A stretch of 64,000 nt of DNA from a virus: positions 1-64,000 of IMG/VR virus record IMGVR_UViG_3300002060_000001; one strand, 5' to 3'. A program made the translations under genes and the position numbers. A model generated the notes under the pieces. It saw nothing but the letters and a program-made list of their open reading frames with translations, was not told where the DNA came from and made no database searches. This document shows positions 2,888 through 55,865 of the stretch, one piece after another. How positions within the stretch are numbered: position 1 is the first letter of the stretch; every line of letters starts with the position of its first letter.

Positions 2888-4033
2888 CTAGACCCTCAAC
2901 GGCATGATGACAAAAAGACAGTCCTGATCCTCCTGATCAAGCAACAGGACGGGTGACGCGGGTCCGCTAAAGAACATTTCGGCGTCACGGCTTCCGATAA
3001 GCCCCAGAGCCTCTATCATATATTTTGAGTTCAGGCCTATATCGGTATTCTCACCCCCGAATGATGCCGAGACAACTTCATTCGCCTCACCTGTCTCGGA
3101 TGACCGGACATCTAGGCGAATTTCATCACTCGTGAGGGATAGCTTGATAGAGCGGGCCTTCTCTTTCGTTACCGTCGACACACGATCGATGGCGTCAGAC
3201 AAAATAGGACAATCAACCACTAGACGAGCATTTGAACGCGGGGGGATAACCCGCTCATAGTCAGGGAAAAACCCGTCAATGATTTTAGATGTCAGGGCGG
3301 CACTATGATGCTCAACACAAATCTTAGATTCCGTCACGGACATTTTGACCTGATCAGTGTCAGGGGACGAGTCAATCAAGCGCCTGATTTCCGCCGCCGC
3401 CTTACGGGGAATGATGACCCCCTCCATCCCGTCAGCGCCGTCAGGCAATGACATTGAGGCCTTTGCTAATCTGTGGCCGTCAGTTGCGACACACGTCAGT
3501 TGATCCTCTGTCTGGTGAAAATATATCCCATTCAGATAATAGCGCGTTTCCTCTGTTGAGATTGCGAACCGTGTTTTATCAATGAGGCGTTTCAGATCTC
3601 CCACCGTGAGGGTGAAATCATGCGCCTCACCCGTGTTCGTCATCTTTGGAAAATCGGCCGGCGGCAAGAGCGGTAGTTCAAAATTTGACCGCCCCGCGTT
3701 AATCTTAAGCCTAGCGCCATAAAAATCGCCGTCCTTTGGATTGTTTACCTCAACGCTGATAAGCGCCCCGTTAGGGAGTTTCCGGACAACATCATAGAGC
3801 GTCCGAGCCGGAACCGTGAATGACTTTTCATCCCCCTTGACCTCGATAGACTGAACCTCAAAAGTTTCCGTGATTTCAATATCAAGGTCAGTGGCAGTCA
3901 TAATCATGCTGTTGTCATCCCGCGCCTCAATCAAGACATTGCTCAAAATCGGAATAGTGTTGCGCTTTTCGACAACGCTCTGGGCTAGCTTCAGGGTGTC
4001 CATGAGGACTTTCTTTTCAACTTCGATTTTCAT
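2888..4033 (-). CDS. dnaN: DNA polymerase III beta sliding clamp (bacterial DnaN type)
   Basis: 381 aa, full-length DnaN-like. Diagnostic stretches: VVEKRNTIPILSNVLIEA...MTATDLDIEI...FPKM...RFAISTEETRYYLNGIYF...VATDGHRLA...IDGFFPDYERVIP...PVLL...FVIMPLRV. Confidence 0.95.
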   Translation of the reverse strand: MKIEVEKKVLMDTLKLAQSVVEKRNTIPILSNVLIEARDDNSMIMTATDLDIEITETFEVQSIEVKGDEKSFTVPARTLYDVVRKLPNGALISVEVNNPKDGDFYGARLKINAGRSNFELPLLPPADFPKMTNTGEAHDFTLTVGDLKRLIDKTRFAISTEETRYYLNGIYFHQTEDQLTCVATDGHRLAKASMSLPDGADGMEGVIIPRKAAAEIRRLIDSSPDTDQVKMSVTESKICVEHHSAALTSKIIDGFFPDYERVIPPRSNARLVVDCPILSDAIDRVSTVTKEKARSIKLSLTSDEIRLDVRSSETGEANEVVSASFGGENTDIGLNSKYMIEALGLIGSRDAEMFFSGPASPVLLLDQEDQDCLFVIMPLRV

Positions 4034-4175: not shown

Positions 4176-4856
4176 TCATAGAAACATATCCGGCTGTTCA
4201 TAGGCCTCCGATACACGCTGACACGCTATATCAAAGAACTTAGGGTCAATCTCAATGCCAGTCGCGGCCCTATTCATCTTTGTGGCCGCGACAAGCGTTG
4301 TTCCGGAACCCATATAGGGGTCAAGAATTGTGTCCTCTTTATCAAGATAGGATAGACACCACTGCATGACGGCTATCGGCTTTTGTGTCGGATGAACGGG
4401 CTTTTCGTTCTGTTCACTGTCCCGCACCATACCGTACCACCGATGATTTAAGCCCCTTATGGCTTTATCAAGATTTGTCCAGGCTAACTCGGCATGACCC
4501 TGATCCATTCGGGTGTTACCGTCAGCCTTAAACCAAACAAACCATGAGCGTGAGTTCGGAAGCTTATCCGCGTAACAGTTACCGCCCCACCAGATATGTT
4601 TATCGGCAAGCGGCAGGAATGGGCGCGGGTCAAAGTCCATATCTCCCGTGTCACCTATCAGTTGATCCTCTGGGCCAAAGTTCCGCTCCCTGACGGCGCT
4701 ATTCTTAGAGCCATGACGGGACGGCTTATAACCATAGCCATACGGTGGGTCCGCCACGATAGCCGTATGACGCGGAAAGTAAGGGTTTTTCACTATCTCA
4801 ACGCTGTCACCCAGAATAAGGCGGGACTTACCTATGATTTCCTCACGGATGATCAT
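4176..4856 (-). CDS. Beta-class N6-adenine/N4-cytosine DNA methyltransferase (CcrM-type fold)
   Basis: Motif IV DPPYG lies near the N-terminus and motif I DPYMGSGTT near the C-terminus. HPTQKPIAVMQWCL is also present. 226 aa. Confidence 0.9.
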   Translation of the reverse strand: MIIREEIIGKSRLILGDSVEIVKNPYFPRHTAIVADPPYGYGYKPSRHGSKNSAVRERNFGPEDQLIGDTGDMDFDPRPFLPLADKHIWWGGNCYADKLPNSRSWFVWFKADGNTRMDQGHAELAWTNLDKAIRGLNHRWYGMVRDSEQNEKPVHPTQKPIAVMQWCLSYLDKEDTILDPYMGSGTTLVAATKMNRAATGIEIDPKFFDIACQRVSEAYEQPDMFL

Positions 4857-5527: not shown

Positions 5528-5860
5528 TCACTGCGCGGCCCTTAATATAGTCAGGGCTTTATCCGCTCCGATGAGATTTATCAGGATGTTTAAGTCACGG
5601 TCACGAACCGACATAAGATACATTTCAGTCGGATAAACAGAGCGCGCCCTGTTAGGATTAACACGGATGCAACCCCGCTCTGATAGGGACATAACCAGTC
5701 GGTGAATACCTGACTTTGATGCTAAATTCATAGCATCCCGCATTTCATCATAGCTAGGGCTAAACCTATTCTCGGTGATGAACTTAACTATAAAATCCAT
5801 TAACTCAACTTGATGGGGTGTCATGCCCAGAAGCGGTTGATTTGACATAGCGCCTAACAT
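5528..5860 (-). CDS. LexA-type winged-helix DNA-binding protein lacking the S24 peptidase domain
   Basis: LTPHQVELMDFIVKFITENRFSPSYDEMRDAMNLASKSGIHRLVMSLSERGCIR matches the LexA N-terminal DNA-binding domain pattern. At only 110 aa there is no room for the Ser/Lys autocleavage domain. Confidence 0.6.
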   Translation of the reverse strand: MLGAMSNQPLLGMTPHQVELMDFIVKFITENRFSPSYDEMRDAMNLASKSGIHRLVMSLSERGCIRVNPNRARSVYPTEMYLMSVRDRDLNILINLIGADKALTILRAAQ

Positions 5861-6204
5861 TTGAGGCTATCCGACATCAAGCGAGTCTGCGAGACGTTCA
5901 GGTTATCAAAATAATCGGGATGCCACTGCGCTACCTCACCGACGCGCGTGTTCATCAAATCACTCGCCATGATGACGCCGTGCATAGCCCAACATAACTG
6001 AACATAATAGTGATGAATTGCCGCCTCAAGACGGATGGGTGGGGAGGCCTTGAGGCGGCGAGATAGCGGATTCCTCTGGGACGCAATCCGCTGATCTAAC
6101 TGTTTTTTAAACTCTTTAAAATCTTCCTGACGCCCAGTAAAACCAACGCCTTTGAACTTTTTGAGTGCGTTGATGTCGTCGCCATATGTGTTTGGATTTA
6201 TCAT
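5854..6204 (-). CDS. Hypothetical protein (116 aa)
   Basis: Track ORF, with ATGA-type overlaps at both ends. Confidence 0.5.
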   Translation of the reverse strand: MINPNTYGDDINALKKFKGVGFTGRQEDFKEFKKQLDQRIASQRNPLSRRLKASPPIRLEAAIHHYYVQLCWAMHGVIMASDLMNTRVGEVAQWHPDYFDNLNVSQTRLMSDSLKC

Positions 6205-6353
6205 TTTGATTGCTGTCCCGCCCGATAAGCCGCTTCAAGGGCCGATTTAATGTTCCAGACAGAGACATCATGGAAATCAAGCGAGTCGCTATTGCGCGTC
6301 TCAAGTGTCTCAATATCAAGTTCCTCTTTGGCTATGTCATCTAAAATTTGCAT
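6201..6353 (-). CDS. Hypothetical 50-aa protein
   Basis: Too short for the ORF track. GGAGAT is followed 4 nt later by ATG (6353-6351). Product: MQILDDIAKEELDIETLETRNSDSLDFHDVSVWNIKSALEAAYRAGQQSK. Its stop overlaps the next ATG (ATGA). Confidence 0.6.
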   Translation of the reverse strand: MQILDDIAKEELDIETLETRNSDSLDFHDVSVWNIKSALEAAYRAGQQSK

Positions 6354-6449
6354 CTTGATCTCCTAATCGGTGGACTTCATCGTCCTAAGATAATCACCTT
6401 AAATCATATTCGTGAGCCGCAGTCCAGTGAAATAACAAAAAAATGTTAT
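6354..6449 (-). promoter_or_regulatory. Promoter/leader cassette, copy A
   Basis: Minus-strand read: ATAACATTTTTTTGTTAT-TTCA-CTGGACTGCGG-17 nt-TTTAAG-...-AGGACGATGAAGTCCACC-GATTA-GGAGAT-CAAG-ATG. The same architecture occurs at 18625 and 52367. Confidence 0.6.
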
Positions 6450-6997
6450 TTTAATTTCTTGAGTTCATCAAATGGGCCTTCTTTCGCCCTCTGTGGCGTC
6501 TTTGGGAACCGCCTCTTATGCCATTCTCTGATCTGTCCATAGTTGACTTTACGGCTTATTGCCGCCGCATGACGGCATTGACCCGCGTCAAACATCCCTA
6601 TGTGGCATTCGTCTTTTGTCAGTTTCAGTTGATAGGCCAGAAAGTCATAACAGCGATGACGGGCCGATTGAGTGATAGTCCTGACCGCCAGATTGTCCCT
6701 AACACTTCCGGCATACGCGGGATCAAAAACGGCTTTTTTCCAGAGCGGATCAAAAGCACTATGGGCTATCTGACGCTCTTTCCGTAAAGCGGCATTCGCG
6801 GGACGGCCAAGCGGGCGGCCATTAGATTTATGGCTCCCGACATAGGCCTCACAGTTGTTACAATACCAATAAATCCCATCCTGCAGATCAGCCCGGTGCG
6901 GATATATAACCCGCCCCGTGACCTTACGGGCCTTCTGCGGGCAATGCATACAGATGGGCGCCTGAATGGGTTTCTTTTTGGTCTTTCTCTTAGTCAC
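6446..6997 (-). CDS. Zn-ribbon protein (DUF3268-like pattern)
   Basis: CMHCPQKA...IYPHRADL...YWYCNNCEAYVGSHK...PLGRPANAALRKERQIAHSAFDPLW...ECHIGMFD. I recognise this as the DUF3268-type phage Zn-ribbon family, from memory only. Confidence 0.5.
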   Translation of the reverse strand: MTKRKTKKKPIQAPICMHCPQKARKVTGRVIYPHRADLQDGIYWYCNNCEAYVGSHKSNGRPLGRPANAALRKERQIAHSAFDPLWKKAVFDPAYAGSVRDNLAVRTITQSARHRCYDFLAYQLKLTKDECHIGMFDAGQCRHAAAISRKVNYGQIREWHKRRFPKTPQRAKEGPFDELKKLK

Positions 6998-8111
6998 TCT
7001 TGAGGCTCAAAATTCTATCATATTGAGCCGCGGACTTGTCGGCTAGGAAATTCAATTCCTCACCATAGAGCGCGTCAAAGGCTTTCATTGAGATATTGCG
7101 TTTCCGATAGTCCTCAATGAGTGCGTCCGTGAACTCAACCCATTCCTTATCCGTCATATCGTCAGGATTTTGCGGGAACAGAACCTTATCATTTTTAGAT
7201 TTAGGCTCGTCTTTCGGGGCATCATCAAGAGGCTTACGACCTGTCTTTTTCTCACTGACGGGCTTATCGGCATCTTGGTCCGCCGCATTATCGGGCCTCT
7301 CATCAACCTTTTTTTCAGGCTCACGGCGTTCAGCCCGCCCGTCAATGACATTTCCGGCTGACCCCGCCGCCTTATCCGCCATATGCTGATTTAAGCGGTC
7401 GGCGGGCGTCTGGGCTTGTGTCGCGCTGAAATCGTACATCGTATCGTCACGACTAAAGACGTTCTGAACCTCACTGGATAGCGGGGCAAGTTTTGATGCG
7501 CGGCGGAGCGCCGTCTTGCGCCACATTTCACCCTCATGGGCCTTATTGAACCAAGGGCCGGAACGGGCTTTGACGGCGCTTTTAATGGCTAGGATTTCAT
7601 CCTTACCCATAACATCAAAATATTCACCGCCGTCTGTCGTTTTGACAAGCGCCCACGCACCTATCTTGTCACCGCGATTTTCAAGCGCCTGTTTATGGTG
7701 CAGATAAGTTTCTGTCCCGCGCTGAAAATCAAAATCATCATTCTTACAGATCAATCCAGTCTGAACGTCCTTGACCTCACCAGAATTACGCATCCGCTTG
7801 AGCAGTCCGCCGTACATCGGAATGTAAGTCGCACGGCCCTTAAAGGCTATGATAGCCGCCTCACGCTTACCGTCAGGGAATAGGCCGTCCATAGCGCACT
7901 GACGGAATGCTATCAGAAGTGACTTTTTGCCGTCAGCAGTCTTAAGGCAATCCATCAAATAATTGTCTGACTTAATCGCCCCGTTCATGGTTCGCAGAAA
8001 GCGCTCTGGGTCAACGCTTTCTGGTAAAAAGTCCGCAAGTTGATCCGCCGCGCTCTGAACGACGGGATGAAGGCTTTGCATAACCTTAGTTGAAATTTCA
8101 TTCTTAGCCAT
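6990..8111 (-). CDS. recT: RecT-family single-strand annealing protein with a long C-terminal extension
   Basis: ...AIIAFKGRATYIPMYGGLLKRMRNSGEVKDV...GAWALVKTTDGGEYFDVMGKDEILAI...GPWFNKAHEGEMWRKTALRRASKLAPLS. This is followed by about 130 aa of K/D/E/P-rich tail plus an extra helical domain. Confidence 0.85.
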   Translation of the reverse strand: MAKNEISTKVMQSLHPVVQSAADQLADFLPESVDPERFLRTMNGAIKSDNYLMDCLKTADGKKSLLIAFRQCAMDGLFPDGKREAAIIAFKGRATYIPMYGGLLKRMRNSGEVKDVQTGLICKNDDFDFQRGTETYLHHKQALENRGDKIGAWALVKTTDGGEYFDVMGKDEILAIKSAVKARSGPWFNKAHEGEMWRKTALRRASKLAPLSSEVQNVFSRDDTMYDFSATQAQTPADRLNQHMADKAAGSAGNVIDGRAERREPEKKVDERPDNAADQDADKPVSEKKTGRKPLDDAPKDEPKSKNDKVLFPQNPDDMTDKEWVEFTDALIEDYRKRNISMKAFDALYGEELNFLADKSAAQYDRILSLKSD

Positions 8112-8120
8112 ATTCGCCTC

Positions 8121-8873
8121 CTAAGCGCGGTTGACGAGTTCTTGACTCGCGGTGTGCATGACATCCTCATCAAAGTCTTGATTGAGAACCCACTTGATAT
8201 AGCCGAGATCAACCTCTGACCACTTTTTCCCAAAGTGTTTGCCGAAAGAAACTTTAGGCAGAACGGCGGGCTTACTGCTGATCTCAAGCATTTTTGAAAC
8301 AGACATTCGGGTCAGCATATCCTTAAACAAGTGAGCCGTCAGGACGGCATCCGGTAAAGCCCGATGAAGCTGACTATTAGCAAAGAAAGCCGGCCAGTCC
8401 GTATCTGTTCCGCGATGTAGATTAAGCCAGTAAAATAGCGCCGCGTTCTTATGGCTCGGCGCGTCTGGGAATAACGCAAGCGCAACCCGATAGGTATCAA
8501 TCCACGGCCCGTCAGCCGCCGTCAGTCCCTTGACATATTTTTCATCAAAGCGGCTGTTATGCGCTACATAATACTGTGGCTCCAGACCCAGAGATTTAGA
8601 CACGTTTCTGACCCCCTCATCTGCAGGAGGCGCGTCCTCAAGCATTTCGGGTGTAATGTGATGGATAGCCATAACCTCTGGCGGCATCACGGGATTGACG
8701 GGCTTAATGAGTGTCGAACCCCCATCCATGACCTGTATATCCCCGCGCGCGGGAAGTTCACCGTCTGACATCATGGGGATGAGAACAGGGACGGCTCCGA
8801 ACTCAACAATCTCACTGTCATCGTCCATTCCGTTTGTTTCAGTATCAATGACAAGCGCTTTTAAATTTGACAT
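8121..8873 (-). CDS. DEDDh 3'-5' exonuclease, ExoX-like
   Basis: Exo I motif LVIDTETNG, Exo II HNSRFDEKY, Exo III H..RALPDA. The C-terminal FGKHFGKKWSEVDLGYIKWVL resembles the ExoX C-terminal motif. Confidence 0.8.
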   Translation of the reverse strand: MSNLKALVIDTETNGMDDDSEIVEFGAVPVLIPMMSDGELPARGDIQVMDGGSTLIKPVNPVMPPEVMAIHHITPEMLEDAPPADEGVRNVSKSLGLEPQYYVAHNSRFDEKYVKGLTAADGPWIDTYRVALALFPDAPSHKNAALFYWLNLHRGTDTDWPAFFANSQLHRALPDAVLTAHLFKDMLTRMSVSKMLEISSKPAVLPKVSFGKHFGKKWSEVDLGYIKWVLNQDFDEDVMHTASQELVNRA

Positions 8874-10063: not shown

Positions 10064-10081
10064 ATCACATTTTTTTGTTAT
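10064..10081 (+). promoter_or_regulatory. Palindrome-family box ATCACA-T6-TGTTAT in the divergent control region
   Basis: Member of the ATAACA-W6-TGTTAT family. It lies in the 10029-10121 gap between divergent operons. TTGACG at 10087-10092 follows. Confidence 0.45.
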
Positions 10082-10399: not shown

Positions 10400-10900
10400 A
10401 TGGCAAAATCTGTCGAAAAAGGAGCCGCGTCGTCTAATGCTGTAGATGACGAGACATTCCGCGCATTTGTGCGTTTAGCCGCAGAGGCAAACGAAGTATG
10501 CGAAAAAGCTAATTCAGCTAAAAAACGACTGCGTAAACAAATTAAAGCGGCGGGCATTCAGCTTGGCGACTTTGACGCTGTGATGAAAATGACTGACTGG
10601 GGACGTTCAGAGGTCAGAGAACATTTTGACCGCCGGACACTATACGCCAAATGGCTGAACCTTCCTGTGGGATCACAAGGCGAAATGTTTACAAGCGGGA
10701 GTGAAAACTCTGAAACAGGCGCAGAAACTCAAGGTGATGTCGTCTTTGCGAAAGCTTATCAAGCGGGTGTCATGGGTAAAGCCGCCGACTGCCCAGAGGA
10801 ATACCTTGATCAAAGCACTAAATGGGCCGAGGGCTATAAAGCCGGACAAGACAGTCTGGCTATGGAACTCATCAACAAAAACAAAGCAACGGCAGAATAA
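10400..10900 (+). CDS. Hypothetical protein (166 aa)
   Basis: Track ORF with an SD-like GGAGA 9 nt upstream of the ATG. There is only weak GapR/DUF2312-like resemblance in residues 18-90, which is not enough to call. Confidence 0.5.
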   Translation: MAKSVEKGAASSNAVDDETFRAFVRLAAEANEVCEKANSAKKRLRKQIKAAGIQLGDFDAVMKMTDWGRSEVREHFDRRTLYAKWLNLPVGSQGEMFTSGSENSETGAETQGDVVFAKAYQAGVMGKAADCPEEYLDQSTKWAEGYKAGQDSLAMELINKNKATAE

Positions 10901-11539: not shown

Positions 11540-13021
11540 ATGTCAGGTATGCCCCACTCATTCGGCGTCGAGCAGTCACTGCTAGGCGCTTTAATTTTTG
11601 ACAATCAACAGATTGATCTGGTCGCGGATAAACTCTCCGAGGCCTCTTTTTTTGCCGAACAACATATCATTGTTTGGCGCGCGCTTCAGCAGATACGCCT
11701 TAAGGGCGGGATAGCTGACGCAAACACCCTTCTTGAATTTTTTGAGCGGGAAAATCAGTTAAAGAAAATCGGCGGCGATGAGTACCTAGCCCAGATGGTC
11801 AATAACGCGGCCCTTGAGCCTGAACTTGATGAATACACTGAAATTCTTGTTGACCTTCAACACCGCCGCGCGATGATCCGGATAGGACAGGCGCTTGAGG
11901 CTAGTTCCGTTAAACCTGAAATCGGTCAGGACTCATCCGATATAGCCGTCACGGCCCAGACGGAACTTTCTGCCATAATGATGGGAACAACCGTAAAGCC
12001 GGCCACAAATATCAAAGCCGGAATGAAAAAATATGTTCAAAAAGTCCGCGCGGGCAAAGAGGGAAATGTTGAATCCTGCCTATCGACGGGCTCTGAAGTT
12101 CTTAACCGCAGACTCGGCGGGGGTTTTTATAATTCAGACCTGATCATTCTCGCGGGGCGGCCCTCAATGGGTAAAACGCAACTGGCTCTGACGCTTCTTG
12201 AAAGTATGGCGTCAAGCGAGTCCGTGAAAGAGATTTCACAAGGTAAGAAAGCCCTAGTTCCGTTTTTCAGTCTTGAGATGGATGAGGAAAGTGTGTTCGG
12301 CAGAATGCTGACAACAAATAGTCATAAACGGTTCGGTAAACGGTACTCCTCACGGAAAATGCGCTCATATGACATCCCTGATCAACAGCTTGACGCCATA
12401 GAGGAACATCTTGAGGAATTGAGCGAAACAATGCTCATTGATGATCAGGGCGGGATCAAAATAAGAGATATGGAGGTCAGGTGTCTAAATATAGAACGGA
12501 CACACGGGCGGCCCATTGATGCTATCCTTGTGGATTATCTGCAAATCTTAACCGGAGCGCCCGATGACGTTAAGGCGGGTAAGACAGCAGAGGTCACGGG
12601 TATCTCTGCAGGGCTTAAGCGTCTGGCTAAACGCTTTGATGTCCCCGTTATCGCACTCGCTCAACTTAGCCGCGGTGTTGAAAGCCGTGATGATAAACGT
12701 CCTCAACTTTCAGATCTCCGAGATTCAGGCGCTATTGAGCAAGATGCGGATGTTGTGATGTTTGTCTATCGTGAGGCGTACTATCACGAGCGCGCTGAAC
12801 CAGACAGCTCAAGCGACAAACATCAAGCGTGGTCTGTGAAGCTTGAAAAGATCAGAAACGTGATGACGATCATAACCGCAAAACAGCGTCTCGGCCCCGT
12901 GGGTTCAGATGATATTTTCTGTGATGTATTCACCGGATATGTAGGGGACTGCAGTCCTACAGATATGCACGGCTCCGCCGCTCACAATGATCCCCGATGG
13001 TCTGGAAATAATCAGGCCTAG
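11540..13021 (+). CDS. dnaB: Replicative DNA helicase DnaB
   Basis: Walker A GRPSMGKTQLAL, FFSLEM, Walker B ILVDYLQIL, VIALAQLSRGVESRDDKRPQLSDLRDSGAIEQDADVVMFVYRE. Confidence 0.95.
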   Translation: MSGMPHSFGVEQSLLGALIFDNQQIDLVADKLSEASFFAEQHIIVWRALQQIRLKGGIADANTLLEFFERENQLKKIGGDEYLAQMVNNAALEPELDEYTEILVDLQHRRAMIRIGQALEASSVKPEIGQDSSDIAVTAQTELSAIMMGTTVKPATNIKAGMKKYVQKVRAGKEGNVESCLSTGSEVLNRRLGGGFYNSDLIILAGRPSMGKTQLALTLLESMASSESVKEISQGKKALVPFFSLEMDEESVFGRMLTTNSHKRFGKRYSSRKMRSYDIPDQQLDAIEEHLEELSETMLIDDQGGIKIRDMEVRCLNIERTHGRPIDAILVDYLQILTGAPDDVKAGKTAEVTGISAGLKRLAKRFDVPVIALAQLSRGVESRDDKRPQLSDLRDSGAIEQDADVVMFVYREAYYHERAEPDSSSDKHQAWSVKLEKIRNVMTIITAKQRLGPVGSDDIFCDVFTGYVGDCSPTDMHGSAAHNDPRWSGNNQA

Positions 13022-16950: not shown

Positions 16951-18639
16951 ATGCCTAGATTTGATGACGGGTTTAAAGAACAAATCCGTGATGCGGTCAG
17001 GGTCAGCCAGATAGTTGAAAAACATGTTAAGCTGAAACGGTCAGGCCGAGAACTTGTCGGCCTGTCCCCGTTCACGAATGAAAAAACCCCTAGCTTTTAT
17101 GTAAATGACGCGAAACAGTTCTATCACTGTTTTTCATCTGGGATGCACGGAGATGTGTTTGCCTTTGTGATGGAACTGCAGGGAATGACGTTTCCAGAGT
17201 CGGTTGAGTATCTCGCGGGCATAGCGGGGCTTGAGATGCCGTCCTATACGCCTCAACAGCGTCAACAGGACGACAGACGCAAGCTTTTATTTGCCGCGCT
17301 TAACGATGCACAGGACTTTTTTGTTCACTCATTAAAGAGTGAGGGAGCGGCTATCGCGCGTGAATACTTGGCTCACAGAAAGATTGATGAGGGTTCGGTG
17401 TCTAAATGGGGTCTGGGGTACGCGCCGCTCGTGTCCTCATCCCTGCCAAGCGCCCTAAAGAAACACAAAAAGGATATTTTGATTGAGGCGGGGCTTATCC
17501 GTGAAAACGCGCGCGGAACCTATGGGTTCTATCGTAACCGCCTGACATTCCCGATACGGGACAGGCAGGGCCGCGTCACATCATTCGGCGCCCGTGCGCT
17601 TGAGGATGATCAAAAACCCAAATATGTGAACGGTCAAGAAAGTCCGGTATTTAGTAAATCAAAGAACCTCTATGGCCTTAATGTATCGAGCGCCGCTATT
17701 GGTCTGAACCGTCAGGCGAACGGATTGATTTTGTCAGAGGGCTATCTTGATGTCATAGCCCTAGACCGCGCCGGAATACCACTGGGCGTCGCGCCATTAG
17801 GGACATCCGTGACAGACGATCACCTGACGGAACTCTGGAGATGGGGGCCGGAGCCTATTATTTGTCTTGATGGTGACAAGGCGGGTTATCGTGCTGCGGG
17901 AAAGATTATTGAAAAAACACTTCCCCGAATAGGCGGCGGGCGAACCGTTATGTTCGCAAGACTGCCGTCAGGACAAGACCCTGACGATGTTTTGCGTCAA
18001 GGCGGCCCTGAAGCTCTAAAAGCAATATTAAAATCCCCCGTCCCGATGCCTCGCCTGATATGGGAACGTGAACTTAATGTTGAGAGAACCGACACCCCAG
18101 AGCGGCGCGCGGCTTTTAAGGCGCGGCTTAATGAGCATACGGCGCTCATCAAAGACAAAGACACCGCCCGTCATTATCGGGACGCCTTCTATAGGTGGAC
18201 GCGGGATCACTACAGGCGAGGGCAGAAAAATGCATCCCAGTCACTGCAATCCGGCGGTGTCATAGGTCATAGGGGTCTTGGGATTTTAGTCAGTTGCATT
18301 GACAACCCGGAAATCCTTGAGGAAATTGATGAACAGTTAATCATGGCCGAGTGGTCTCCTGAATGTAAGGCTATTTTTGACCTATTGTTTTCAGCTTATA
18401 TGAACAATCTTGAAATCAATCGTGACGTTATAGTTGATGGACTTCTGGTTGATATGAACACAAACGCGGCTGATATTCTGGAATCATACCCGCGCGGAAA
18501 ACAGATAGAAAAAAACGGACATCAATGGCGTTCAATCATAGATTCTGTTTATCTCTTGCGGAAGGATGAGCATAAACCAAAGACCCTTGCGGACGCTATG
18601 CGGGAACAAGGCATCAGACGCAGAATAACAAAAAAATAA
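16951..18639 (+). CDS. dnaG: DnaG-type primase with a degenerate zinc-binding motif
   Basis: SPFTNEKTPSFYVNDAKQFYHCFSSGMHGDVF aligns to the canonical CPFHNEKTPSF...YHCFGCGAHG. TOPRIM motifs EGYLDVIAL and CLDGDKAGYRAA are present. Confidence 0.9.
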   Translation: MPRFDDGFKEQIRDAVRVSQIVEKHVKLKRSGRELVGLSPFTNEKTPSFYVNDAKQFYHCFSSGMHGDVFAFVMELQGMTFPESVEYLAGIAGLEMPSYTPQQRQQDDRRKLLFAALNDAQDFFVHSLKSEGAAIAREYLAHRKIDEGSVSKWGLGYAPLVSSSLPSALKKHKKDILIEAGLIRENARGTYGFYRNRLTFPIRDRQGRVTSFGARALEDDQKPKYVNGQESPVFSKSKNLYGLNVSSAAIGLNRQANGLILSEGYLDVIALDRAGIPLGVAPLGTSVTDDHLTELWRWGPEPIICLDGDKAGYRAAGKIIEKTLPRIGGGRTVMFARLPSGQDPDDVLRQGGPEALKAILKSPVPMPRLIWERELNVERTDTPERRAAFKARLNEHTALIKDKDTARHYRDAFYRWTRDHYRRGQKNASQSLQSGGVIGHRGLGILVSCIDNPEILEEIDEQLIMAEWSPECKAIFDLLFSAYMNNLEINRDVIVDGLLVDMNTNAADILESYPRGKQIEKNGHQWRSIIDSVYLLRKDEHKPKTLADAMREQGIRRRITKK

Positions 18640-18722
18640 GATTTTACTGGACTGCGGGACATTCGCGTGTATATGGTGAAAATCTATCAGGGCGATGAAG
18701 CCCACCTGATTTGGAGATCAAT
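18625..18722 (+). promoter_or_regulatory. Promoter/leader cassette, copy B
   Basis: ATAACAAAAAAATAAGAT-TTTA-CTGGACTGCGG-16 nt-TATATG-...-AGGGCGATGAAGCCCACC-TGATTT-GGAGAT-CAAT-ATG. Confidence 0.6.
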
Positions 18723-18974
18723 ATGAAAAACTGGACATTCACAACAGATTTCAAACATATCATCAAAGTTTTTGATGAAAACGGTGAATTATGCGCCGAC
18801 TTTTGTCGTGACAGCAAAGAGGATGCATTCCGTCTTTTCGTCTGCGGGATGCATAGGTCTGCGACTATCGGCGGTCAGCGCTTTAGTCTTACTCATAAAA
18901 AAACAGGGGAAAAGATCATAGACGGCGGTTTAATATTCCCTGCGAAAATAGATAAGGTTTTAGGATTGAAATGA
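18723..18974 (+). CDS. Hypothetical protein (83 aa)
   Basis: ATG at 18723, 6 nt after GGAG. The track ORF uses an upstream TTG. First gene after cassette B. Confidence 0.55.
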   Translation: MKNWTFTTDFKHIIKVFDENGELCADFCRDSKEDAFRLFVCGMHRSATIGGQRFSLTHKKTGEKIIDGGLIFPAKIDKVLGLK

Positions 18975-19216
18975 GCATCAAAACAGAAATGACCAAAGAT
19001 GAGTTTCTTGAACTTAGAACATCTTTAGGCCTGACCCGTGAAGAGGCGGCCCTTGTTTTAAATGTCAAGGTAGACACTCTGCGTAAATGGGATGGGAATA
19101 AAGACCGTCATCGGCCTATGGGGCCGCACCCAACTGCAGTTATGTACTTACAGGCTATCGCTAATAATCCTGATTTTATTCCGCCTTTCTGGCCTGAACG
19201 ATTACTGGAGGACTGA
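18971..19216 (+). CDS. XRE-like HTH protein
   Basis: EFLELRTSLGLTREEAALVLNVKVDTLRKWDGN is a classic HTH_XRE pattern. ATGA overlap with the upstream gene. Confidence 0.6.
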   Translation: MSIKTEMTKDEFLELRTSLGLTREEAALVLNVKVDTLRKWDGNKDRHRPMGPHPTAVMYLQAIANNPDFIPPFWPERLLED

Positions 19217-19217
19217 T

Positions 19218-19436
19218 ATGTCAAAAGAACAGCAGGTTTTTCTTAAGGTAAAAGATAGCTCTTCGACAAGAACTGTTGACTGGCCATTTCGTGAAATCCC
19301 TCAAATGGGTGACACGGTTTATGTTTTAGGTGTGGCTTATCGTGTCATCAATCGCGATTTTAGAACTGACGATATCGTTGATGAAGGCGGGGAGCCATCT
19401 GTCCGCATTAATGTCTGGATGGAACCATATAAATGA
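19218..19436 (+). CDS. Hypothetical protein (72 aa)
   Basis: ATG at 19218 with GGAG at 19207-19210 (MSKEQQVFLKV...). The longer track ORF 19092-19436 would overlap the previous gene. Confidence 0.5.
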   Translation: MSKEQQVFLKVKDSSSTRTVDWPFREIPQMGDTVYVLGVAYRVINRDFRTDDIVDEGGEPSVRINVWMEPYK

Positions 19437-21448
19437 AAGTCGGTTCAATATGTTCAGGGATAGAGGCCGCCAGTCAGGCCGCGCCTGATAATTGGGAGTT
19501 TGCCTTTTTTAGTGAAATTGAGAAGTTTCCGTCAGCGGTTCTGGCTCATCACTATCCTGACATCCCTAATCTCGGTGATTTTACAACTATCAAGGCGGGT
19601 GACTGGAAAGATGTCACGCTTCTGTGCGGCGGCCCGCCGTGTCAAACTTTCTCTATTGCGGGAAACCGTGGCGGTCTTAATGATGACCGTGGAAACTTAA
19701 CCCTTGAATACGTGAGGATGATGCATGACTTCGCAGACAATGGACTTATTTGGGGACTCTATGAGAACGTCCCCGGAATCTTGTCAGACAAAACAAATGC
19801 CTTCGGAAGTTTCCTTTCAGGAATTGTCGGTGGAGACGCTCCCTTATGTCCGCCCGACGCCACATGGGGTGAGCTCACAGACGATGACGGACAGCCACTT
19901 GGAACCTTTGGTTGGCAACAGATCAAATGGCCCAGTCAAGGTATGGTTGAGGGGCCACGGGCACGGGCGGCATGGGATGTTCTCGACGCTCAATGGTTCG
20001 GGTTGGCGCAACGACGCAAGCGTGTGTTTGTTGTCATCAGTTTTGCAAAAGACCGTGATCCCGCAAAAGTATTATTTGAGCGGAAAGGCGTGTTTGGGAA
20101 TACTCCGCCGAGCCGAAAAGCGGGACAAAGACTTACCGGAAAACCTATGGAGAGCTCTGGCGACAGTAGTAACAAAATCGGTGTTGATGGGGATAGGGAT
20201 AATGGCGAAAAAGATGAAATCTCAATTATAGACAGGGCCGCCTTTAACCAAGGGGCAAACGCCCTTTATGATCCTAAAATTGAGATAGGTGACTTGATGC
20301 CCGCTCTTGTCGCGCGCGGCCCCCACGCTGTCGGTCATAAAGAACCTGTCGGCGCTAGAATGGTAGCGTTTGGAGAGTATGAAATTGATGAAACAGCCTC
20401 AACTATAAAAGCCAGAGACTATAAAGATGCGACTGACCTTATAGCTTTTTCAGCTAAAGACTATGGCGGTGATGCCACCGAAAACCTAGCGCCGACAATG
20501 CGCGCGGGAAGCCATGATAAAAGTCACGCAAATAGCGGAAACTGGGTTGCTATAGCCGTTCAAGATGGACGTGAGATTGAAAAGAAGCAAAACGGGCTTG
20601 GTGTCAACACAGATAATATTGCCTATACTTTAGATAAAGCCGCAACCCAAGCAGTTGCATTTAAACCATCACATTATACTCGCGGAAAAGATGGTAAACC
20701 GTCAGAGATAACACCCCCCCTGACGGCTGACGCCGATAAAGGAGATCAAGACCCTGTTGTTTTAGCTCCAACACATCAAGAACCTTACACGCTTGAAATT
20801 AGGGGGCGTGATAGTGGCCGAGAACTTGAATATCGTGATGACGGAACGGCTAATTCACTGCGGGCCTCATCTGGCGGACGGGACGGAATGGGTGTCGGTG
20901 CTGTCGCATTTTCTCAAAACCTACGTGATGAAGTTCGACTGCAGGGCGGTGATGGTCAAATAGCGGGAGCGCTATCAGCAAGCCCCGGAATGAAACAGTG
21001 GACTTATATAGCCCAGACAGACAAAAAGCCTGTTTATGAGGTTCATGGGATGGATAGTAGGGTTTCTTTTTTAAGGGATGATTTATGCGGGACTGTCACC
21101 GCCAGATACGGAACAGGCGGAAACAATATTCCTATTACGCTTGACTATACCCCTTACGCAGTCCGGCGTCTGACGCCTGTTGAGTGTGAACGCCTTATGG
21201 GTTTCCCTGATAATTTCACCTTAATTGATTACACGAGCCGCGCGTCAGAGGTAAAGATTGCCGAAGACGTTGAACGGTATGCTATCAGAATGGGGTATGA
21301 TACGCAGGACGAAAATGTCATTCGTATGTTTATGTGTCCTGACGGCCCGCGCTATAAGGCTCTGGGTAACAGTTGGGCCGTTCCTGTTGTTAAATGGATA
21401 TTTGACCGGATAGAGGCGCAAGAATCAGCGCTGCGGGCGGCGGCATGA
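19433..21448 (+). CDS. Giant C5-cytosine DNA methyltransferase with an oversized variable region
   Basis: Motif I SICSGIEA, IV GGPPCQTFSIAG, VI ENVPG, VIII QRRKRVFVV. About 370 aa of variable region follow, then RRLTPVECERLMGFPDNFT and YKALGNSWAVPVVKWI (IX/X). Confidence 0.9.
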   Translation: MKVGSICSGIEAASQAAPDNWEFAFFSEIEKFPSAVLAHHYPDIPNLGDFTTIKAGDWKDVTLLCGGPPCQTFSIAGNRGGLNDDRGNLTLEYVRMMHDFADNGLIWGLYENVPGILSDKTNAFGSFLSGIVGGDAPLCPPDATWGELTDDDGQPLGTFGWQQIKWPSQGMVEGPRARAAWDVLDAQWFGLAQRRKRVFVVISFAKDRDPAKVLFERKGVFGNTPPSRKAGQRLTGKPMESSGDSSNKIGVDGDRDNGEKDEISIIDRAAFNQGANALYDPKIEIGDLMPALVARGPHAVGHKEPVGARMVAFGEYEIDETASTIKARDYKDATDLIAFSAKDYGGDATENLAPTMRAGSHDKSHANSGNWVAIAVQDGREIEKKQNGLGVNTDNIAYTLDKAATQAVAFKPSHYTRGKDGKPSEITPPLTADADKGDQDPVVLAPTHQEPYTLEIRGRDSGRELEYRDDGTANSLRASSGGRDGMGVGAVAFSQNLRDEVRLQGGDGQIAGALSASPGMKQWTYIAQTDKKPVYEVHGMDSRVSFLRDDLCGTVTARYGTGGNNIPITLDYTPYAVRRLTPVECERLMGFPDNFTLIDYTSRASEVKIAEDVERYAIRMGYDTQDENVIRMFMCPDGPRYKALGNSWAVPVVKWIFDRIEAQESALRAAA

Positions 21449-22047
21449 TTTATACAGATTTCAGCAAAATACCGCTCTTTGGTTATAATATGATTATGGC
21501 TGATCCGCCTTGGGAATTTAAACTGCGGTCAGACAAAGGTGAGGATAAAAGCCCTCAAGCACAATATAACTGCATGCCGCTTGATGAAATCTGCTCAATG
21601 AATGTGGCTGATCTGGCGGCGGGGAATTGCCTCTTATGGCTCTGGGTCACGAACCCGATGATTGATCAAGGGCTTGATGTTTTGAGGGCTTGGGGCTTTC
21701 AATTCAAAACGGCCGGCACTTGGGTCAAGATGTCAAAGTCCTGGACCGCCGACGGATGGAAAGACGGCAAAGAGCCTAAATTGAATTTCGGGACAGGTTA
21801 TATTTTGCGTTCAGCAAATGAACCGTTTCTTATCGGGACAATGGGGGATAACGATACAAGCAAATCCGTCCGTTCAGCCATAAGGGGTGCAGTTAGGGAA
21901 CATAGTCGCAAGCCCGATGAGGCGTACCGCGAGGCCGAGCGTCTTTTACCGAGCGCTTATAGGCTTGATATGTTTAGCCGTGAGGAACGGCAGGGATGGG
22001 ATTCTTTTGGTTTTGAAGCAGGGAAGTTCAATGAAAAAATGCAATAA
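21445..22047 (+). CDS. MT-A70 family N6-adenine methyltransferase
   Basis: IMADPPWEF catalytic motif and CLLWLWVTNPM...WGFQFKT...HSRKPDE. 200 aa. Confidence 0.85.
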   Translation: MIYTDFSKIPLFGYNMIMADPPWEFKLRSDKGEDKSPQAQYNCMPLDEICSMNVADLAAGNCLLWLWVTNPMIDQGLDVLRAWGFQFKTAGTWVKMSKSWTADGWKDGKEPKLNFGTGYILRSANEPFLIGTMGDNDTSKSVRSAIRGAVREHSRKPDEAYREAERLLPSAYRLDMFSREERQGWDSFGFEAGKFNEKMQ

Positions 22048-22612
22048 ATGCGGGGTAGAAAAGCCTAACACTTCAGAGTTTTTTGCAAAAAACAAAACTT
22101 GTGTTGGGGGGCTAACAAGCACTTGCAAAAAATGCATTAATTACAGAACAAGCCAGTGGAAAAAAGAAAACAAAATTAAAATTACTGACTCTGAAGACTA
22201 TCATAAAAAAGCAAGAGAAAGAACCCAAAGACGGACAAAATGGTTAGCTGAAAATGAACCTATCGTCTATCAAGCGAAGGCATTACTGACCTCTCTGGGA
22301 GATCGCTGTAATAAAAACAATTTATTCCGTGATGATGTTTTTAAAACAAGAAAATATATTGCCGAATGGCTTGAGCGACAACCTAACTGTGAGTGCTGTA
22401 ACGTAAAGTTCAGCATAGGAAAAAAAGACAAAGGCAGGGCCCTTGATTCATCTCCCAGTTTAGACCGTTTCAATTTAAAGATAGGATACACTAAGGAAAA
22501 CACAAAACTGATATGTTGGCGCTGCAATAATATCAAAAGGAACTACACCCAACACGACCTCAAGCTAGTAGCGGAATGGATGGATAAGGTGGAGATTATT
22601 GATGAAAAATAA
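22031..22612 (+). CDS. HNH / endonuclease VII-like (His-Me finger) nuclease
   Basis: ATG at 22031 with a GGGAAG SD. N-terminal CNKCG...CKKC Zn finger; C-terminal CECC...SPSLDRFNLKIGYTKENTKLICWRCNNIKRN. Markedly AT-rich. Confidence 0.65.
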   Translation: MKKCNKCGVEKPNTSEFFAKNKTCVGGLTSTCKKCINYRTSQWKKENKIKITDSEDYHKKARERTQRRTKWLAENEPIVYQAKALLTSLGDRCNKNNLFRDDVFKTRKYIAEWLERQPNCECCNVKFSIGKKDKGRALDSSPSLDRFNLKIGYTKENTKLICWRCNNIKRNYTQHDLKLVAEWMDKVEIIDEK

Positions 22613-24964: not shown

Positions 24965-24982
24965 ATAACAATAAATTGTTAT
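24965..24982 (+). promoter_or_regulatory. Near-perfect 18-bp palindrome ATAACAATAAATTGTTAT
   Basis: TTGACT at 24953-24958 lies 17 nt upstream of TGTTAT, and TATAAT overlaps at 24979-24984. The box sits 38 nt upstream of the ATG at 25021. Confidence 0.55.
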
Positions 24983-46017: not shown

Positions 46018-46035
46018 GTCTTATTTTTTTGTTAT
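46018..46035 (-). promoter_or_regulatory. Palindrome-family box (minus strand ATAACAAAAAAATAAGAC)
   Basis: 17/18 identical to the box of cassette B. It lies 36 nt upstream of the ATG at 45981. Confidence 0.45.
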
Positions 46036-52366: not shown

Positions 52367-52463
52367 ATCGTATTTTTCTGTTATTTTTCTCTGGACTGCG
52401 GTGTTTTTCCATGATTTATAGGTATTGTCTTAGGGCGATGAAGCCCACCTAGCGGAGATGACA
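52367..52463 (+). promoter_or_regulatory. Promoter/leader cassette, copy C
   Basis: ATCGTATTTTTCTGTTAT-TTTTCT-CTGGACTGCGG-17 nt-TTTATA-...-AGGGCGATGAAGCCCACC-TAGC-GGAGAT-GACA-ATG. Confidence 0.6.
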
Positions 52464-52799
52464 ATGACTAAAAACTACATGAAACAATTTTCAGATTTTG
52501 ATAACGCGGATGTTTTTGAGACTATTCTTGAGGGTTTAAAGCCTCACGGCTTTGATGACGGCTCATGGCGTAACGACTCATGCCCAAGCGTAGGGCGTGA
52601 AATTAAGGACGGTGATTATATCTCTGTCTTTGTTGATTACAAAAACCCAGACCTAGCAGAGTTTCCAGAGGACAGAAAAAGCGGTCAAATGAAAGTCATC
52701 ACTATTTATTCCCAAGTCGATGACACAACTTTTCAAACTGACGACACTGCAGAAGCCGTTTCAAAGGCTATTGAAATCTTTACAAGTCAGTCAGCGTAA
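52464..52799 (+). CDS. Hypothetical acidic protein (111 aa)
   Basis: ATG at 52464 chosen by analogy with cassettes A and B (GGAGAT, 4 nt, ATG). The track ORF starts 6 nt earlier. Confidence 0.55.
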   Translation: MTKNYMKQFSDFDNADVFETILEGLKPHGFDDGSWRNDSCPSVGREIKDGDYISVFVDYKNPDLAEFPEDRKSGQMKVITIYSQVDDTTFQTDDTAEAVSKAIEIFTSQSA

Positions 52800-53065: not shown

Positions 53066-53316
53066 TACCACCTGACCGCAATGAAACTGACATCCTCAAA
53101 ATGCGGTCTTACTTTTACGCCAAGATGCGGGAAAAGGATGACCCAGAGCGGAGCCGACGGATTTGGAATATCCAGAAAATACGGTGGAACCGCATAACCG
53201 ATAATGGGCGAAAGATGCCTCATTATGGGCTTCCTAAACAGGAAGTCAGAACCGTGACTAAGACCGTTGAGAGACTTAAAATCATCGTCCGTCACATTGA
53301 AATACGCGAGAATTAA
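53062..53316 (+). CDS. Hypothetical basic protein (84 aa)
   Basis: ATG at 53062 with an ATGA overlap (MIPPDRNETDILK...). Confidence 0.45.
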   Translation: MIPPDRNETDILKMRSYFYAKMREKDDPERSRRIWNIQKIRWNRITDNGRKMPHYGLPKQEVRTVTKTVERLKIIVRHIEIREN

Positions 53317-53329
53317 ACAGGAGACACTT

Positions 53330-53734
53330 ATGTCAAAACACGCACCACGAAAGCCTGACCCTATTGATGTTCATGTGGGAACACAAATCAGGCTCCGCCG
53401 TCAGGCATTAAAGATGAGCCAAGAAAAATTAGGGGACGCTTTAGGCATCACCTTTCAACAGGTTCAAAAATATGAGCGCGGGGACAACCGAGTCAGCGCA
53501 AGCCGTCTGCACAAGACAGCCGCCACCTTGAGAACGCCCGTTCAGGATTTCTTTCCTGCAGATAACGGGGAACAGAAAGCGCCCGCTAAACAAGCCGTTG
53601 CTATTCAGGATTTCATTTCAAGCACTAACGGCGTTAAGTTCGCAGAGGCTCTGTCAAAGATACCCCGTCGGATGGAAACTGAACTCTTAGCCCTCATCCG
53701 CGTGATGGGTAAATCTAAGCAACCTGTAGCATGA
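53330..53734 (+). CDS. XRE-family HTH transcriptional regulator (alphaproteobacterial type)
   Basis: ATG at 53330, 6 nt after GGAG. DVHVGTQIRLRRQALKMSQEKLGDALGITFQQVQKYERGDNRVSASRL is the conserved alpha-type XRE core. Confidence 0.8.
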   Translation: MSKHAPRKPDPIDVHVGTQIRLRRQALKMSQEKLGDALGITFQQVQKYERGDNRVSASRLHKTAATLRTPVQDFFPADNGEQKAPAKQAVAIQDFISSTNGVKFAEALSKIPRRMETELLALIRVMGKSKQPVA

Positions 53735-54152: not shown

Positions 54153-54334
54153 CAGAACCAACACCAGAGCAGAGGTTCAGCGGCATAAAGGGCGCTATCA
54201 TCAATGCCAATAAGAGCGCGAACCGGATTGAGTTCGACGGACCTAACTTTCAAACAGAGGTCACTGATCTGGCGTCTCGCCTTGAACTTATTGCCGGACA
54301 CCTAAGAACCTTAGCAAAAGACACTAGCGCGTAA
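54149..54334 (+). CDS. Hypothetical protein (61 aa)
   Basis: Track ORF with an ATGA overlap. Confidence 0.45.
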   Translation: MTEPTPEQRFSGIKGAIINANKSANRIEFDGPNFQTEVTDLASRLELIAGHLRTLAKDTSA

Positions 54335-54348
54335 CAATAAATTGTTAT
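54331..54348 (+). promoter_or_regulatory. Palindrome-family box GTAACAATAAATTGTTAT upstream of ssb
   Basis: 17/18 identical to the box at 24965. It lies 37 nt upstream of the ssb ATG. Confidence 0.5.
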
Positions 54349-55366: not shown

Positions 55367-55759
55367 CTAAGCGACCTTAGTGACGAATTTAGACACCGCG
55401 TAAAACTCTTGAGCCCAGTCCGGCCCCATATATTCCGCAACCTCAAGCCAGTAATGTTTTTGATCAACTGGCATTGTCCCTGTCTCATTTGTTGAACCCA
55501 TAGAGTTCATTATGAGTCGAGCAAGAGCCCGTGGATGAATAACTCCTTGATGAGTTGTCCTTAAGGCTCTTAAGGCATCGTTTTTATCTTTTTCAGACAT
55601 ATCTTGCAGGTCAGGAATATCGTTCTCTGTCGGACAGCTATCCTGCCAATCCTTAAACGCCTCAAGCATATCAAGATGATTTTGTTGTTCGATGTTTTTG
55701 TAATGATCTGAACTTGCGTCCATAAAATCTGTGGGCTTACCGCCCTTATATTTAAGCAT
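55367..55759 (-). CDS. Hypothetical protein (130 aa)
   Basis: Track ORF. The SD-like ATAGGAGCC ends 4 nt upstream of the ATG. Confidence 0.5.
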   Translation of the reverse strand: MLKYKGGKPTDFMDASSDHYKNIEQQNHLDMLEAFKDWQDSCPTENDIPDLQDMSEKDKNDALRALRTTHQGVIHPRALARLIMNSMGSTNETGTMPVDQKHYWLEVAEYMGPDWAQEFYAVSKFVTKVA

Positions 55760-55847: not shown

Positions 55848-55865
55848 ATTACATTTTATTGTTAT
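55848..55865 (+). promoter_or_regulatory. Palindrome-family box ATTACATTTTATTGTTAT
   Basis: In the divergent gap 55760-55863, with TTGACA at 55810-55815 upstream. It overlaps the first ATG of the ParB-methyltransferase ORF. Confidence 0.4.

Follow-up and report, generated by a model that had tools for sequence, protein, structure and literature searches.

Small genes in an uncultivated clade of phages are preceded by a composite cassette whose most conserved part is an 18-nt element, nearly invariant in sequence and predicted to fold into a small hairpin at a short, steady distance upstream of the ribosome-binding site of whatever gene lies behind it. We find this cassette three times in a 64,000-nt stretch of one such phage (hereafter the window) and again in its relatives. 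On sequence comparison, the larger result appears to be this 18-nt, ribosome-binding-site-linked and sequence-invariant hairpin in cassettes laid out like the promoter-early stem-loop (PeSL) cassettes of T4-type phages; the compensatory base-pair change to which the initial annotation drew attention in one copy is, taken alone, a small, suggestive observation.

Three cassettes in one phage genome

The window covers about 90% of a phage genome of ~71.4 kb, which is found in several ENA metagenome assemblies, its cassettes identical there. Besides RecT and an exonuclease encoded next to it (Table 1), the genome encodes DnaB, DnaG, a tail tube protein and a GpJ-like tail protein; a phage RNA polymerase was sought among its proteins and none was found, and searches of the window returned no tRNA and no Rfam match at the gathering threshold. 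Near and distant DNA searches of GenBank phages recovered no relative. The best GenBank phage match of the primase, Caulobacter phage Sansa (42%), lies outside the clade described below, and the closest cellular relatives of the primase are in Hyphomonadaceae-type Alphaproteobacteria; the host group is probably alphaproteobacterial. DNA methyltransferases are numerous (N6_N4, a 671-aa C5 enzyme, MT-A70 and a ParB_N-N6_N4 fusion), which suggests heavy investment against restriction. A 166-aa protein encoded at 10400-10900 (+) resembles ribosome modulation factor at a level below threshold (PF04957; E=7e-5, 23.3 bits where the cut-off is 27.9), and the same weak match is present in the relatives L180 and L182.

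Re-reading the coordinates confirmed that the hairpin is GGAC-GATGAA-GTCC in copy A and GGGC-GATGAA-GCCC in copies B and C. The initial annotation also described a double change at partner bases, and this too is borne out: within the 18-nt block copy A differs from copies B and C solely by G>A at 6383 and C>T at 6374, which are stem partners, with the loop, the 5' A and the 3' ACC the same in all three. The 14-nt pattern GGRCGATGAAGYCC occurs three times in the window against 0.11 expected from shuffles, and a search of the window with the 18-mer at up to three mismatches gave no copy beyond A, B and C (three in 64 kb). A weak covariance-model match at 55727-55750 (-), AAGGGC-GGTAA-GCCC-ACA (14 bits, E=0.16), lies inside a 130-aa ORF (55367-55759), three codons past its ATG; it may be a degenerate hairpin of this family or a chance match, and was excluded from the copies.

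Copy A was correctly placed between a DUF3268 zinc-finger gene (6446-6997) and a 50-aa ORF, but that ORF, taken at first to be unannotated, is a clear member of DUF6900. Cassette A heads a leftward run that includes a LexA-type HTH protein (5528-5860), methylases and a sliding clamp. Cassette B lies directly after the DnaG primase gene, with small genes and methylases downstream, and cassette C lies in a divergent region adjoining the structural genes, with small genes, an HTH_3 protein (53267-53734) and SSB behind it.

All three cassettes share a box, CTGGACTGCGG, 30-31 nt upstream of the 18-nt element, and have GGAG and an ATG downstream; the box has three exact copies in the window, none of them outside the cassettes (Table 1). 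Judged by SD spacing, ATG 18723 and ATG 52464 are the true starts of the genes behind cassettes B and C. An internal promoter had been proposed at cassette A, and this is plausible as a prediction from sigma70-like hexamers, the choice of which is ambiguous: relatives carry, for example, TTGCAA-17-TATAAA, and the window offers CTGGAC or TTCACT-17-TATGAT. CTGGAC (6422-6427), within the cassette A box, aligns with the -35 hexamer TTGnnn of the relatives. The -10 of cassette A could be TATGAT (6403-6408), which the promoter scan pairs with TTCACT (6426-6431) at 17-nt spacing, or ATTTAA (6399-6404) if CTGGAC is the -35.

The stop codons of the DUF3268 gene (6446-6448) and the primase gene (18637-18639) fall within A/T palindromes, as stop codons do in relatives. 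These palindromes form a family, TAAC-W8-GTTA / CTTA-W7-TAAG, with about nine intergenic sites, and two of them (24966-24981 and 54332-54347) are identical 16-bp perfect palindromes, TAACAATAAATTGTTA. Most homologous cassettes have a related palindrome within the promoter or ahead of it, preceding the -35 or overlapping the -10, with the central A/T tract in either orientation. From its sequence, the palindrome looks like the operator of a dimeric phage regulator.

Table 1. Positions of the cassette parts and neighbouring features; window coordinates unless a locus is named
Feature	Position	Strand	Remarks
18-nt element, copy A	6369-6386	-	A(6386) GGAC(6385-6382) GATGAA(6381-6376) GTCC(6375-6372) ACC(6371-6369); stem-loop 6372-6385
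18-nt element, copy B	18689-18706	+	A GGGC GATGAA GCCC ACC; stem-loop 18690-18703
18-nt element, copy C	52432-52449	+	A GGGC GATGAA GCCC ACC; stem-loop 52433-52446
Cassette A, A/T palindrome TAACATTTTTTTGTTA	6433-6448	-	head of cassette; holds the DUF3268 TAA stop
Cassette A, box CTGGACTGCGG	6417-6427	-	exact repeat
Cassette A, candidate -10	6399-6408	-	consensus matches only
Cassette A, SD AGGAG and ATG of DUF6900 gene	6351-6364	-	SD 6360-6364; ATG 6351-6353
DUF6900 gene, 50 aa	6201-6353	-	first behind cassette A; PF21841, E=1e-26; called gene in public contigs
RecT	6990-8111	-	Pfam on called gene
RNase_T-type exonuclease	8121-8873	-	Pfam on called gene
Cassette B	18626-18725	+	covariance-model score 35.1 bits
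Cassette B, TAACAAAAAAATAAG	18626-18640	+	holds the primase stop
Cassette B, box CTGGACTGCGG	18647-18657	+	
Cassette B, stem, GGAG and ATG	18690-18693 / 18700-18703; 18713-18716; 18723	+	
83-aa ORFan	18723-18974	+	behind cassette B, in variable slot
81-aa HTH gene	18971-19216	+	clade-conserved; right edge of variable slot
Cassette C	52370-52466	+	covariance-model score 35.4 bits
Cassette C, T-tract plus GTTA	52370-52383	+	
Cassette C, box CTGGACTGCGG	52391-52401	+	
Cassette C, stem, GGAG and ATG	52433-52436 / 52443-52446; 52454-52457; 52464	+	
111-aa gene	52464-52799	+	behind cassette C; called gene in public contigs
A/T palindrome sites	6433-6448, 18626-18640, ~10069-10081, 24966-24981, 46020-46034, 52370-52383, 54332-54347		
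Methyltransferases	4176-4856, 19433-21448, ~21445-22050, 55864-57123		~21445-22050 inferred from L093 gene call
Host-gene element	L209 6466-6483; L230 771-788; L236 ~3495-3512	+; +; -	

Homologous copies and what they conserve

The primase clade (49-79% identity) supplied loci from ten more phage genomes. A DNA scan yielded L020, whose counterpart of the 414-aa neighbour of cassette C is 45% identical and which carries, at the equivalent position, an 18-mer identical to that of cassette C. In scans of IMG/VR, the box plus loop gave no match; AGGNCGATGAAGNCCACC gave 86, all of them chance coding matches except L020; and with the inner stem bases free there were at least 116 matches, among which, of those listed, only L020 was genuine. 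A covariance model built from 13 copies found seven additional copies outside the training set, for a total of 20 copies in 11 phage genomes. All 20 are oriented with the downstream gene and are followed by an SD and a start codon, at two to three copies per genome region seen, and the hairpin behind the primase gene is present in all ten genomes where that position was available.

The conserved island is exactly 18 nt long, with entropy of at most 0.9 bit against 1.5-2.0 bits in the flanks, and its consensus, A-GGGC-rATGAa-GCCC-ACC, is almost invariant across phages that are 45-79% identical in protein. Among the 20 phage copies, 3 of 160 stem cells are changed, namely the two partner bases of copy A and, in L181, a C>T at the 3' end of the stem that gives G.U, against 15 of 120 loop cells, or roughly six times the stem rate per site. 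The loop variants are GATGAA, AATGAC, AATGAA, AGTGAA, AATAGA, AATCGA and GAAGGA; the 5' A is changed in three of 20 copies and the ACC in two of 60 cells. The copy behind RecT in L180, at the position equivalent to copy A, has GGGC/GCCC, and the state of copy A is therefore derived; the step to GGAC/GTCC takes two transitions, for which a route through a G.U intermediate is possible.

In the initial annotation the paired change was read as selection on structure rather than on primary sequence, a claim that is reasonable, though statistically thin, in its first half only. Uncompensated stem changes at a frequency like that of changes in the loop or flanks were not found: pairing is intact at 80 of 80 stem pairs in an alignment of 20 copies, 19 from the 11 phage genomes plus a host-gene copy described below. 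Under a simple substitution model a single stem change retains pairing with a probability of 0.17-0.33, and two random changes in the block strike one pair and keep it paired in 1.1-1.4% of cases. In a shuffle control 31 of 500 replicates did as well as the observed covariation, a modest result because only two stem-change events are available. The G.U wobble of L181 would read as a C-A mismatch on the opposite strand. These data favour a hairpin in the sense-strand RNA, on the thin basis of two events. The contrast with primary sequence, on the other hand, does not hold: 18 of 20 copies have one and the same stem sequence, with a near-invariant A and ACC on either side, and primary sequence is constrained at least as strongly as structure.

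Folding and linkage to the ribosome-binding site

The hairpin is present in both the minimum free energy and the centroid folds of all eight leaders (8/8), with the SD mostly unpaired. Its predicted energy is about -6.3 kcal/mol for copy A and -8.4 kcal/mol for the GGGC type, and a 4-bp stem in this range (-6 to -8 kcal/mol) would be a weak one. In all 20 copies, 5-9 nt separate the end of the stem from the SD; the interval between the best -10 hexamer and the stem, usually 8-17 nt, is far more variable, the choice of hexamer being ambiguous. On the predicted -10 spacing, most copies would have their stem at about +2 to +11.

Three relatives vary the distance or the association between promoter and hairpin. 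L096, a 58% relative, shares the promoter of cassette B and then has ~200 nt of GC-rich sequence before the hairpin. This segment (L096 11893-12100) ends in CATCATTTTT, has a fold z-score of only -1.5 and no Rfam match (none at E<=1 in L096 11700-12300); candidate readings are a leader RNA, an attenuator and an inserted element. In L180 a 55-nt insertion (~11722-11775) between promoter and hairpin is predicted to form a very stable separate hairpin, and the whole leader folds at -41 kcal/mol (z=-3.5) with the small hairpin unaffected next to the SD; going by its predicted fold, the insertion may be a small palindromic mobile element. In L087, also a 58% relative, the promoter equivalent to that of cassette C (4740-4810, -) keeps the T-tract and TTGGAC without the hairpin, which makes the hairpin a module that can be separated from the rest of the cassette. 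Near this hairpin-less promoter lies an inserted HNH-like gene.

Other roles for the hairpin were considered and set aside. An N4-like hairpin promoter was rejected, since the search for a phage RNA polymerase came back empty and good predicted promoters of the sigma70 type lie upstream. An intrinsic terminator was likewise rejected, as the stem has only 4 bp and what comes after it, ACC and then A-rich sequence, contains no T-run; a terminator scan of 5800-7000 returned no sites. The 5' flank of the hairpin pairs only weakly, and not consistently, with the region of the start codon, at a mean of -4.2 kcal/mol where shuffles give -3.2.

A slot for small genes behind the cassette

By tblastn, the gene order at cassette B is primase, cassette, variable ORFan or ORFans, the conserved 81-aa HTH gene and a methylase. 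The HTH gene has matches in eight of nine relatives at 37-76% identity, and in L096 the hairpin stands immediately before it. The first gene behind the cassette, by contrast, is unrelated in almost every one of the ten genomes compared at the post-primase position. In L176, a 79% relative, the only gene that differs from the window is the one directly behind the cassette. The first ORFs behind all 20 hairpins are mutually unrelated bar three exceptions: an orthologous pair in L178 and L184; the 83-aa gene behind cassette B, which matches a gene of L097 at a different cassette (40%); and the 111-aa gene behind cassette C, which matches the post-primase gene of L183 (43%). The product of the 83-aa gene otherwise matched only itself among 5.8 billion proteins. 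On these comparisons, the hairpin cassette marks a slot in which small genes are swapped between phages. RecT and the exonuclease could make use of the short homology that the cassettes provide, and recombination may occur at the cassette itself rather than merely next to it.

A host gene with the same leader

A scan of genomes gave 69 matches to the element, of which ~60 are antisense to a conserved coding motif of RND/CzcA efflux pumps and have no bearing on the element. The string AGGGCGATGAAGCCCACC-N-GGAG is common in bacterial genomes (L185-L253) as such RND/CzcA-type antisense, and is a trap for pattern searches. One alphaproteobacterial chromosomal gene, present in three metagenome-assembled genomes (MAGs), has the leader AGGGCGATGACGCCCACC-yGAT-GGAGG-ATG. 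It encodes a secreted protein of ~170 aa in Hyphomicrobium-like MAGs and lies beside an Rrf2-like regulator, assigned only from the N-terminus of the divergent gene's product, as read. The leader is conserved where the upstream DNA has diverged, and the three MAGs count as a single independent case. We take this leader sequence as a hint of a host factor.

How the element may work

We favour, at a probability of roughly one half, a reading in which the element acts at the RNA level as a leader hairpin that standardises or protects the context of the 5' end or ribosome-binding site and is read by a factor, within a cassette that marks a slot for ORFans. The phage carries, in three places, a composite and putatively regulatory cassette for early genes that has been kept across the uncultivated clade and runs from an A/T palindrome, often with the upstream stop, through a predicted host sigma70-type promoter and the 18-nt element to the SD and ATG. 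In the sense-strand mRNA the element would form a small GC hairpin 5-9 nt upstream of the ribosome-binding site, most likely giving the message a fixed, protected 5' context that stabilises or insulates it, and the hairpin would probably also be the site of a sequence-reading factor, whatever small gene sits behind. The argument for such a factor is that a pure stabiliser should tolerate any stable stem, yet the stem is near-invariant, so that something reads its sequence. The cassette marks a slot of ORFan exchange among phages and may, through its conserved sequence, promote that exchange, and the GGAC/GTCC of copy A is a derived, pair-preserving variant reachable through G.U. A bolder form of the same idea is offered only tentatively, and we think it rather unlikely as a whole: the hairpin and its ACC would be an undescribed RNA recognition motif, bound by an alphaproteobacterial host factor or a conserved phage protein, that provides a standard context for early expression and is at the same time the crossover point of a RecT-driven, integron-like ORFan slot.

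The same conservation could arise on DNA. GGGC and GCCC would then be duplex half-sites, 10 bp apart centre to centre, for a phage repressor such as the 81-aa HTH protein, and a repressor seated at about +4 to +25 would shut off or autoregulate the early promoters. Both arms are invariant and the centre is more variable, as in many dimeric operators; the element lies just downstream of the predicted -10 in most copies; and the conserved gene behind cassette B, of XRE-type HTH and found in eight of nine relatives, is in the same operon, with further HTH genes in the operons of cassettes A and C. The site is nevertheless asymmetric, with A at its 5' and ACC at its 3' side and a loop that is purine-rich on the sense strand, and it has one orientation relative to the gene in all 20 copies, although orientation could be inherited with the cassette. 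The two stem changes leave the RNA paired, and one of them, the G.U, breaks the dyad in DNA; the spacing of the element is tied to the SD, not to the promoter, and is kept behind insertions of 55-200 nt. With the true palindromes at ~9 intergenic sites as the better operator candidate, we consider this explanation unlikely, though still a serious rival. Nor does it seem probable, and we would rate the chance as slim, that the hairpin is a specific RNA-protein switch, that is, a nut/boxB-like antitermination site or a translational operator, in which a phage or host RNA-binding protein would bind the hairpin plus ACC so as to alter RNA polymerase, or the access of ribosomes, on early transcripts. 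Such a switch would fit a small GC stem whose loop is purine-rich, placed right after predicted early promoters in two to three copies per genome, and it would fit the conservation of sequence along with structure; loops also tend to agree within a genome (AATAGA and AATCGA in L097, AATGAA and AATGAC in L181, GATGAA three times in the window), and the single host gene with the same hairpin-ACC-SD-ATG leader hints at a host factor. There is, however, no conserved boxA-like flank, the stem and loop sizes are unlike those of boxB, and it is the loop, usually the surface that proteins contact, that varies most. Read by eye, the small proteins encoded immediately after the three window cassettes have no arginine-rich N-like segment, and the host occurrence is one independent case against ~2 chance matches expected for the pattern.

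It is also improbable that pairing is under no selection at all, the change in copy A having come about by chance or by templating on a quasi-palindrome and the 18-mer being kept uniform as a linker, mainly by frequent recombination among cassettes and among phages. Only one compensatory event and one wobble are on record, and inverted repeats are known substrates of templated double mutations. The cassettes coincide with gene replacement in a phage that encodes RecT, and T4 deletion endpoints at GGGC/GCCC repeats were noted by Arbiol et al. (2010; PMC2839356). Homogenisation by recombination should, however, carry the flanks along, yet conservation stops at the edges of the 18 nt; the 18-mer is identical between phages that are 45% identical in the neighbouring protein; and none of 160 stem positions is disrupted, with the loop variable. 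Highly improbable in our view, finally, is a mimic of the tRNA acceptor, at which RNase P would cleave just 5' of the stem so that the mature mRNA begins with the hairpin. The determinants of RNase P are G+1:C+72, A73, C74 and C75, and the invariant G at the start of the stem and C at its end, followed by A-C-C, fit them; such cleavage would also explain a hairpin that works both beside the promoter and behind long inserts. Against it, the stem is only 4 bp long, RNase P needs neither the conserved inner pairs nor the loop, L097 has ACT and ACA instead of ACC, and the base at -1 is usually A.

Comparison with known elements

Among known elements the closest analogue is the PeSL cassette of T4-type phages (Arbiol et al. 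2010, PMC2839356; Comeau et al. 2014, PMC4122927). Each of the two is a composite that recurs between genes, with an upstream stop in an AT-rich tract, sigma70-like -35 and -10 hexamers, predicted ones in the window, and a G...C stem-loop followed by an SD and ATG, and one PeSL subclass has its stem-loop downstream of the -10. In both, ORFans are inserted or replaced between related phages and the stem-loop consensus is specific to the lineage. PeSLs belong to T4-like myoviruses, with dozens of copies in hyperplastic regions, whereas here the phage is of another type, probably infects another host group and has three copies in 64 kb. Recombination between PeSL cassettes, in addition, yields mini-circles. 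Unlike a PeSL, the window stem-loop has 4 bp, lacks a T-run and is not terminator-like; its hairpin is fixed relative to the SD, near-invariant across deep divergence and followed by a conserved 3' ACC. The likeness is one of layout and of ORFan association.

A second parallel is with the start-associated sequences (SAS/ESAS) of Cluster K mycobacteriophages (Pope et al. 2011, PMC3203893). Both these and the window element are short and asymmetric, have GGG...CCC ends, occur in a single orientation, are conserved across subclusters or the clade, and stand immediately upstream of the start codons of non-structural genes from unrelated families; for both, the role is thought to be translational. 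The SAS, a 13-bp GGGATAGGAGCCC present in 11-19 copies, contains the SD and lies 3-7 bp from the start codon, whereas the window element differs in sequence, stops 5-9 nt short of the SD, lies behind a predicted promoter and is a predicted hairpin whose stem changes preserve pairing.

Two classical RNA elements share single features. The boxB of phage lambda, a 15-nt element behind boxA, has a 5-bp stem capped by a GNRA-like pentaloop and is recognised by the arginine-rich N protein. Like the window element, it is a small GC stem with a purine-rich loop after early promoters, in few copies that differ by a base or two. The copies of the window clade, however, have a 4-bp stem and a 6-nt loop in 20 of 20 cases, and upstream of their 5' A no CGCTCTTA-like boxA is conserved, the alignment columns there being at 1.5-2.0 bits (20 copies). 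Stabilisers of the ompA type, in turn, work through structure with little sequence constraint. They are hairpins near the 5' end of the mRNA, as the window element is predicted to be in most copies, and likewise lie upstream of a strong ribosome-binding site, but the window element is sequence-invariant and stays by the SD even far from the predicted 5' end.

Conclusions

If the reading of a leader hairpin within a PeSL-like cassette is true, cassettes of promoter and stem-loop with swappable small genes would not be restricted to T4-like phages, and would instead be a recurrent solution across unrelated phage lineages. The clade would, in addition, provide a compact 18-nt leader element that is far better conserved than the proteins around it, and the variable slot behind it a concrete case of ORFan exchange in which the donor and recipient positions are identified.
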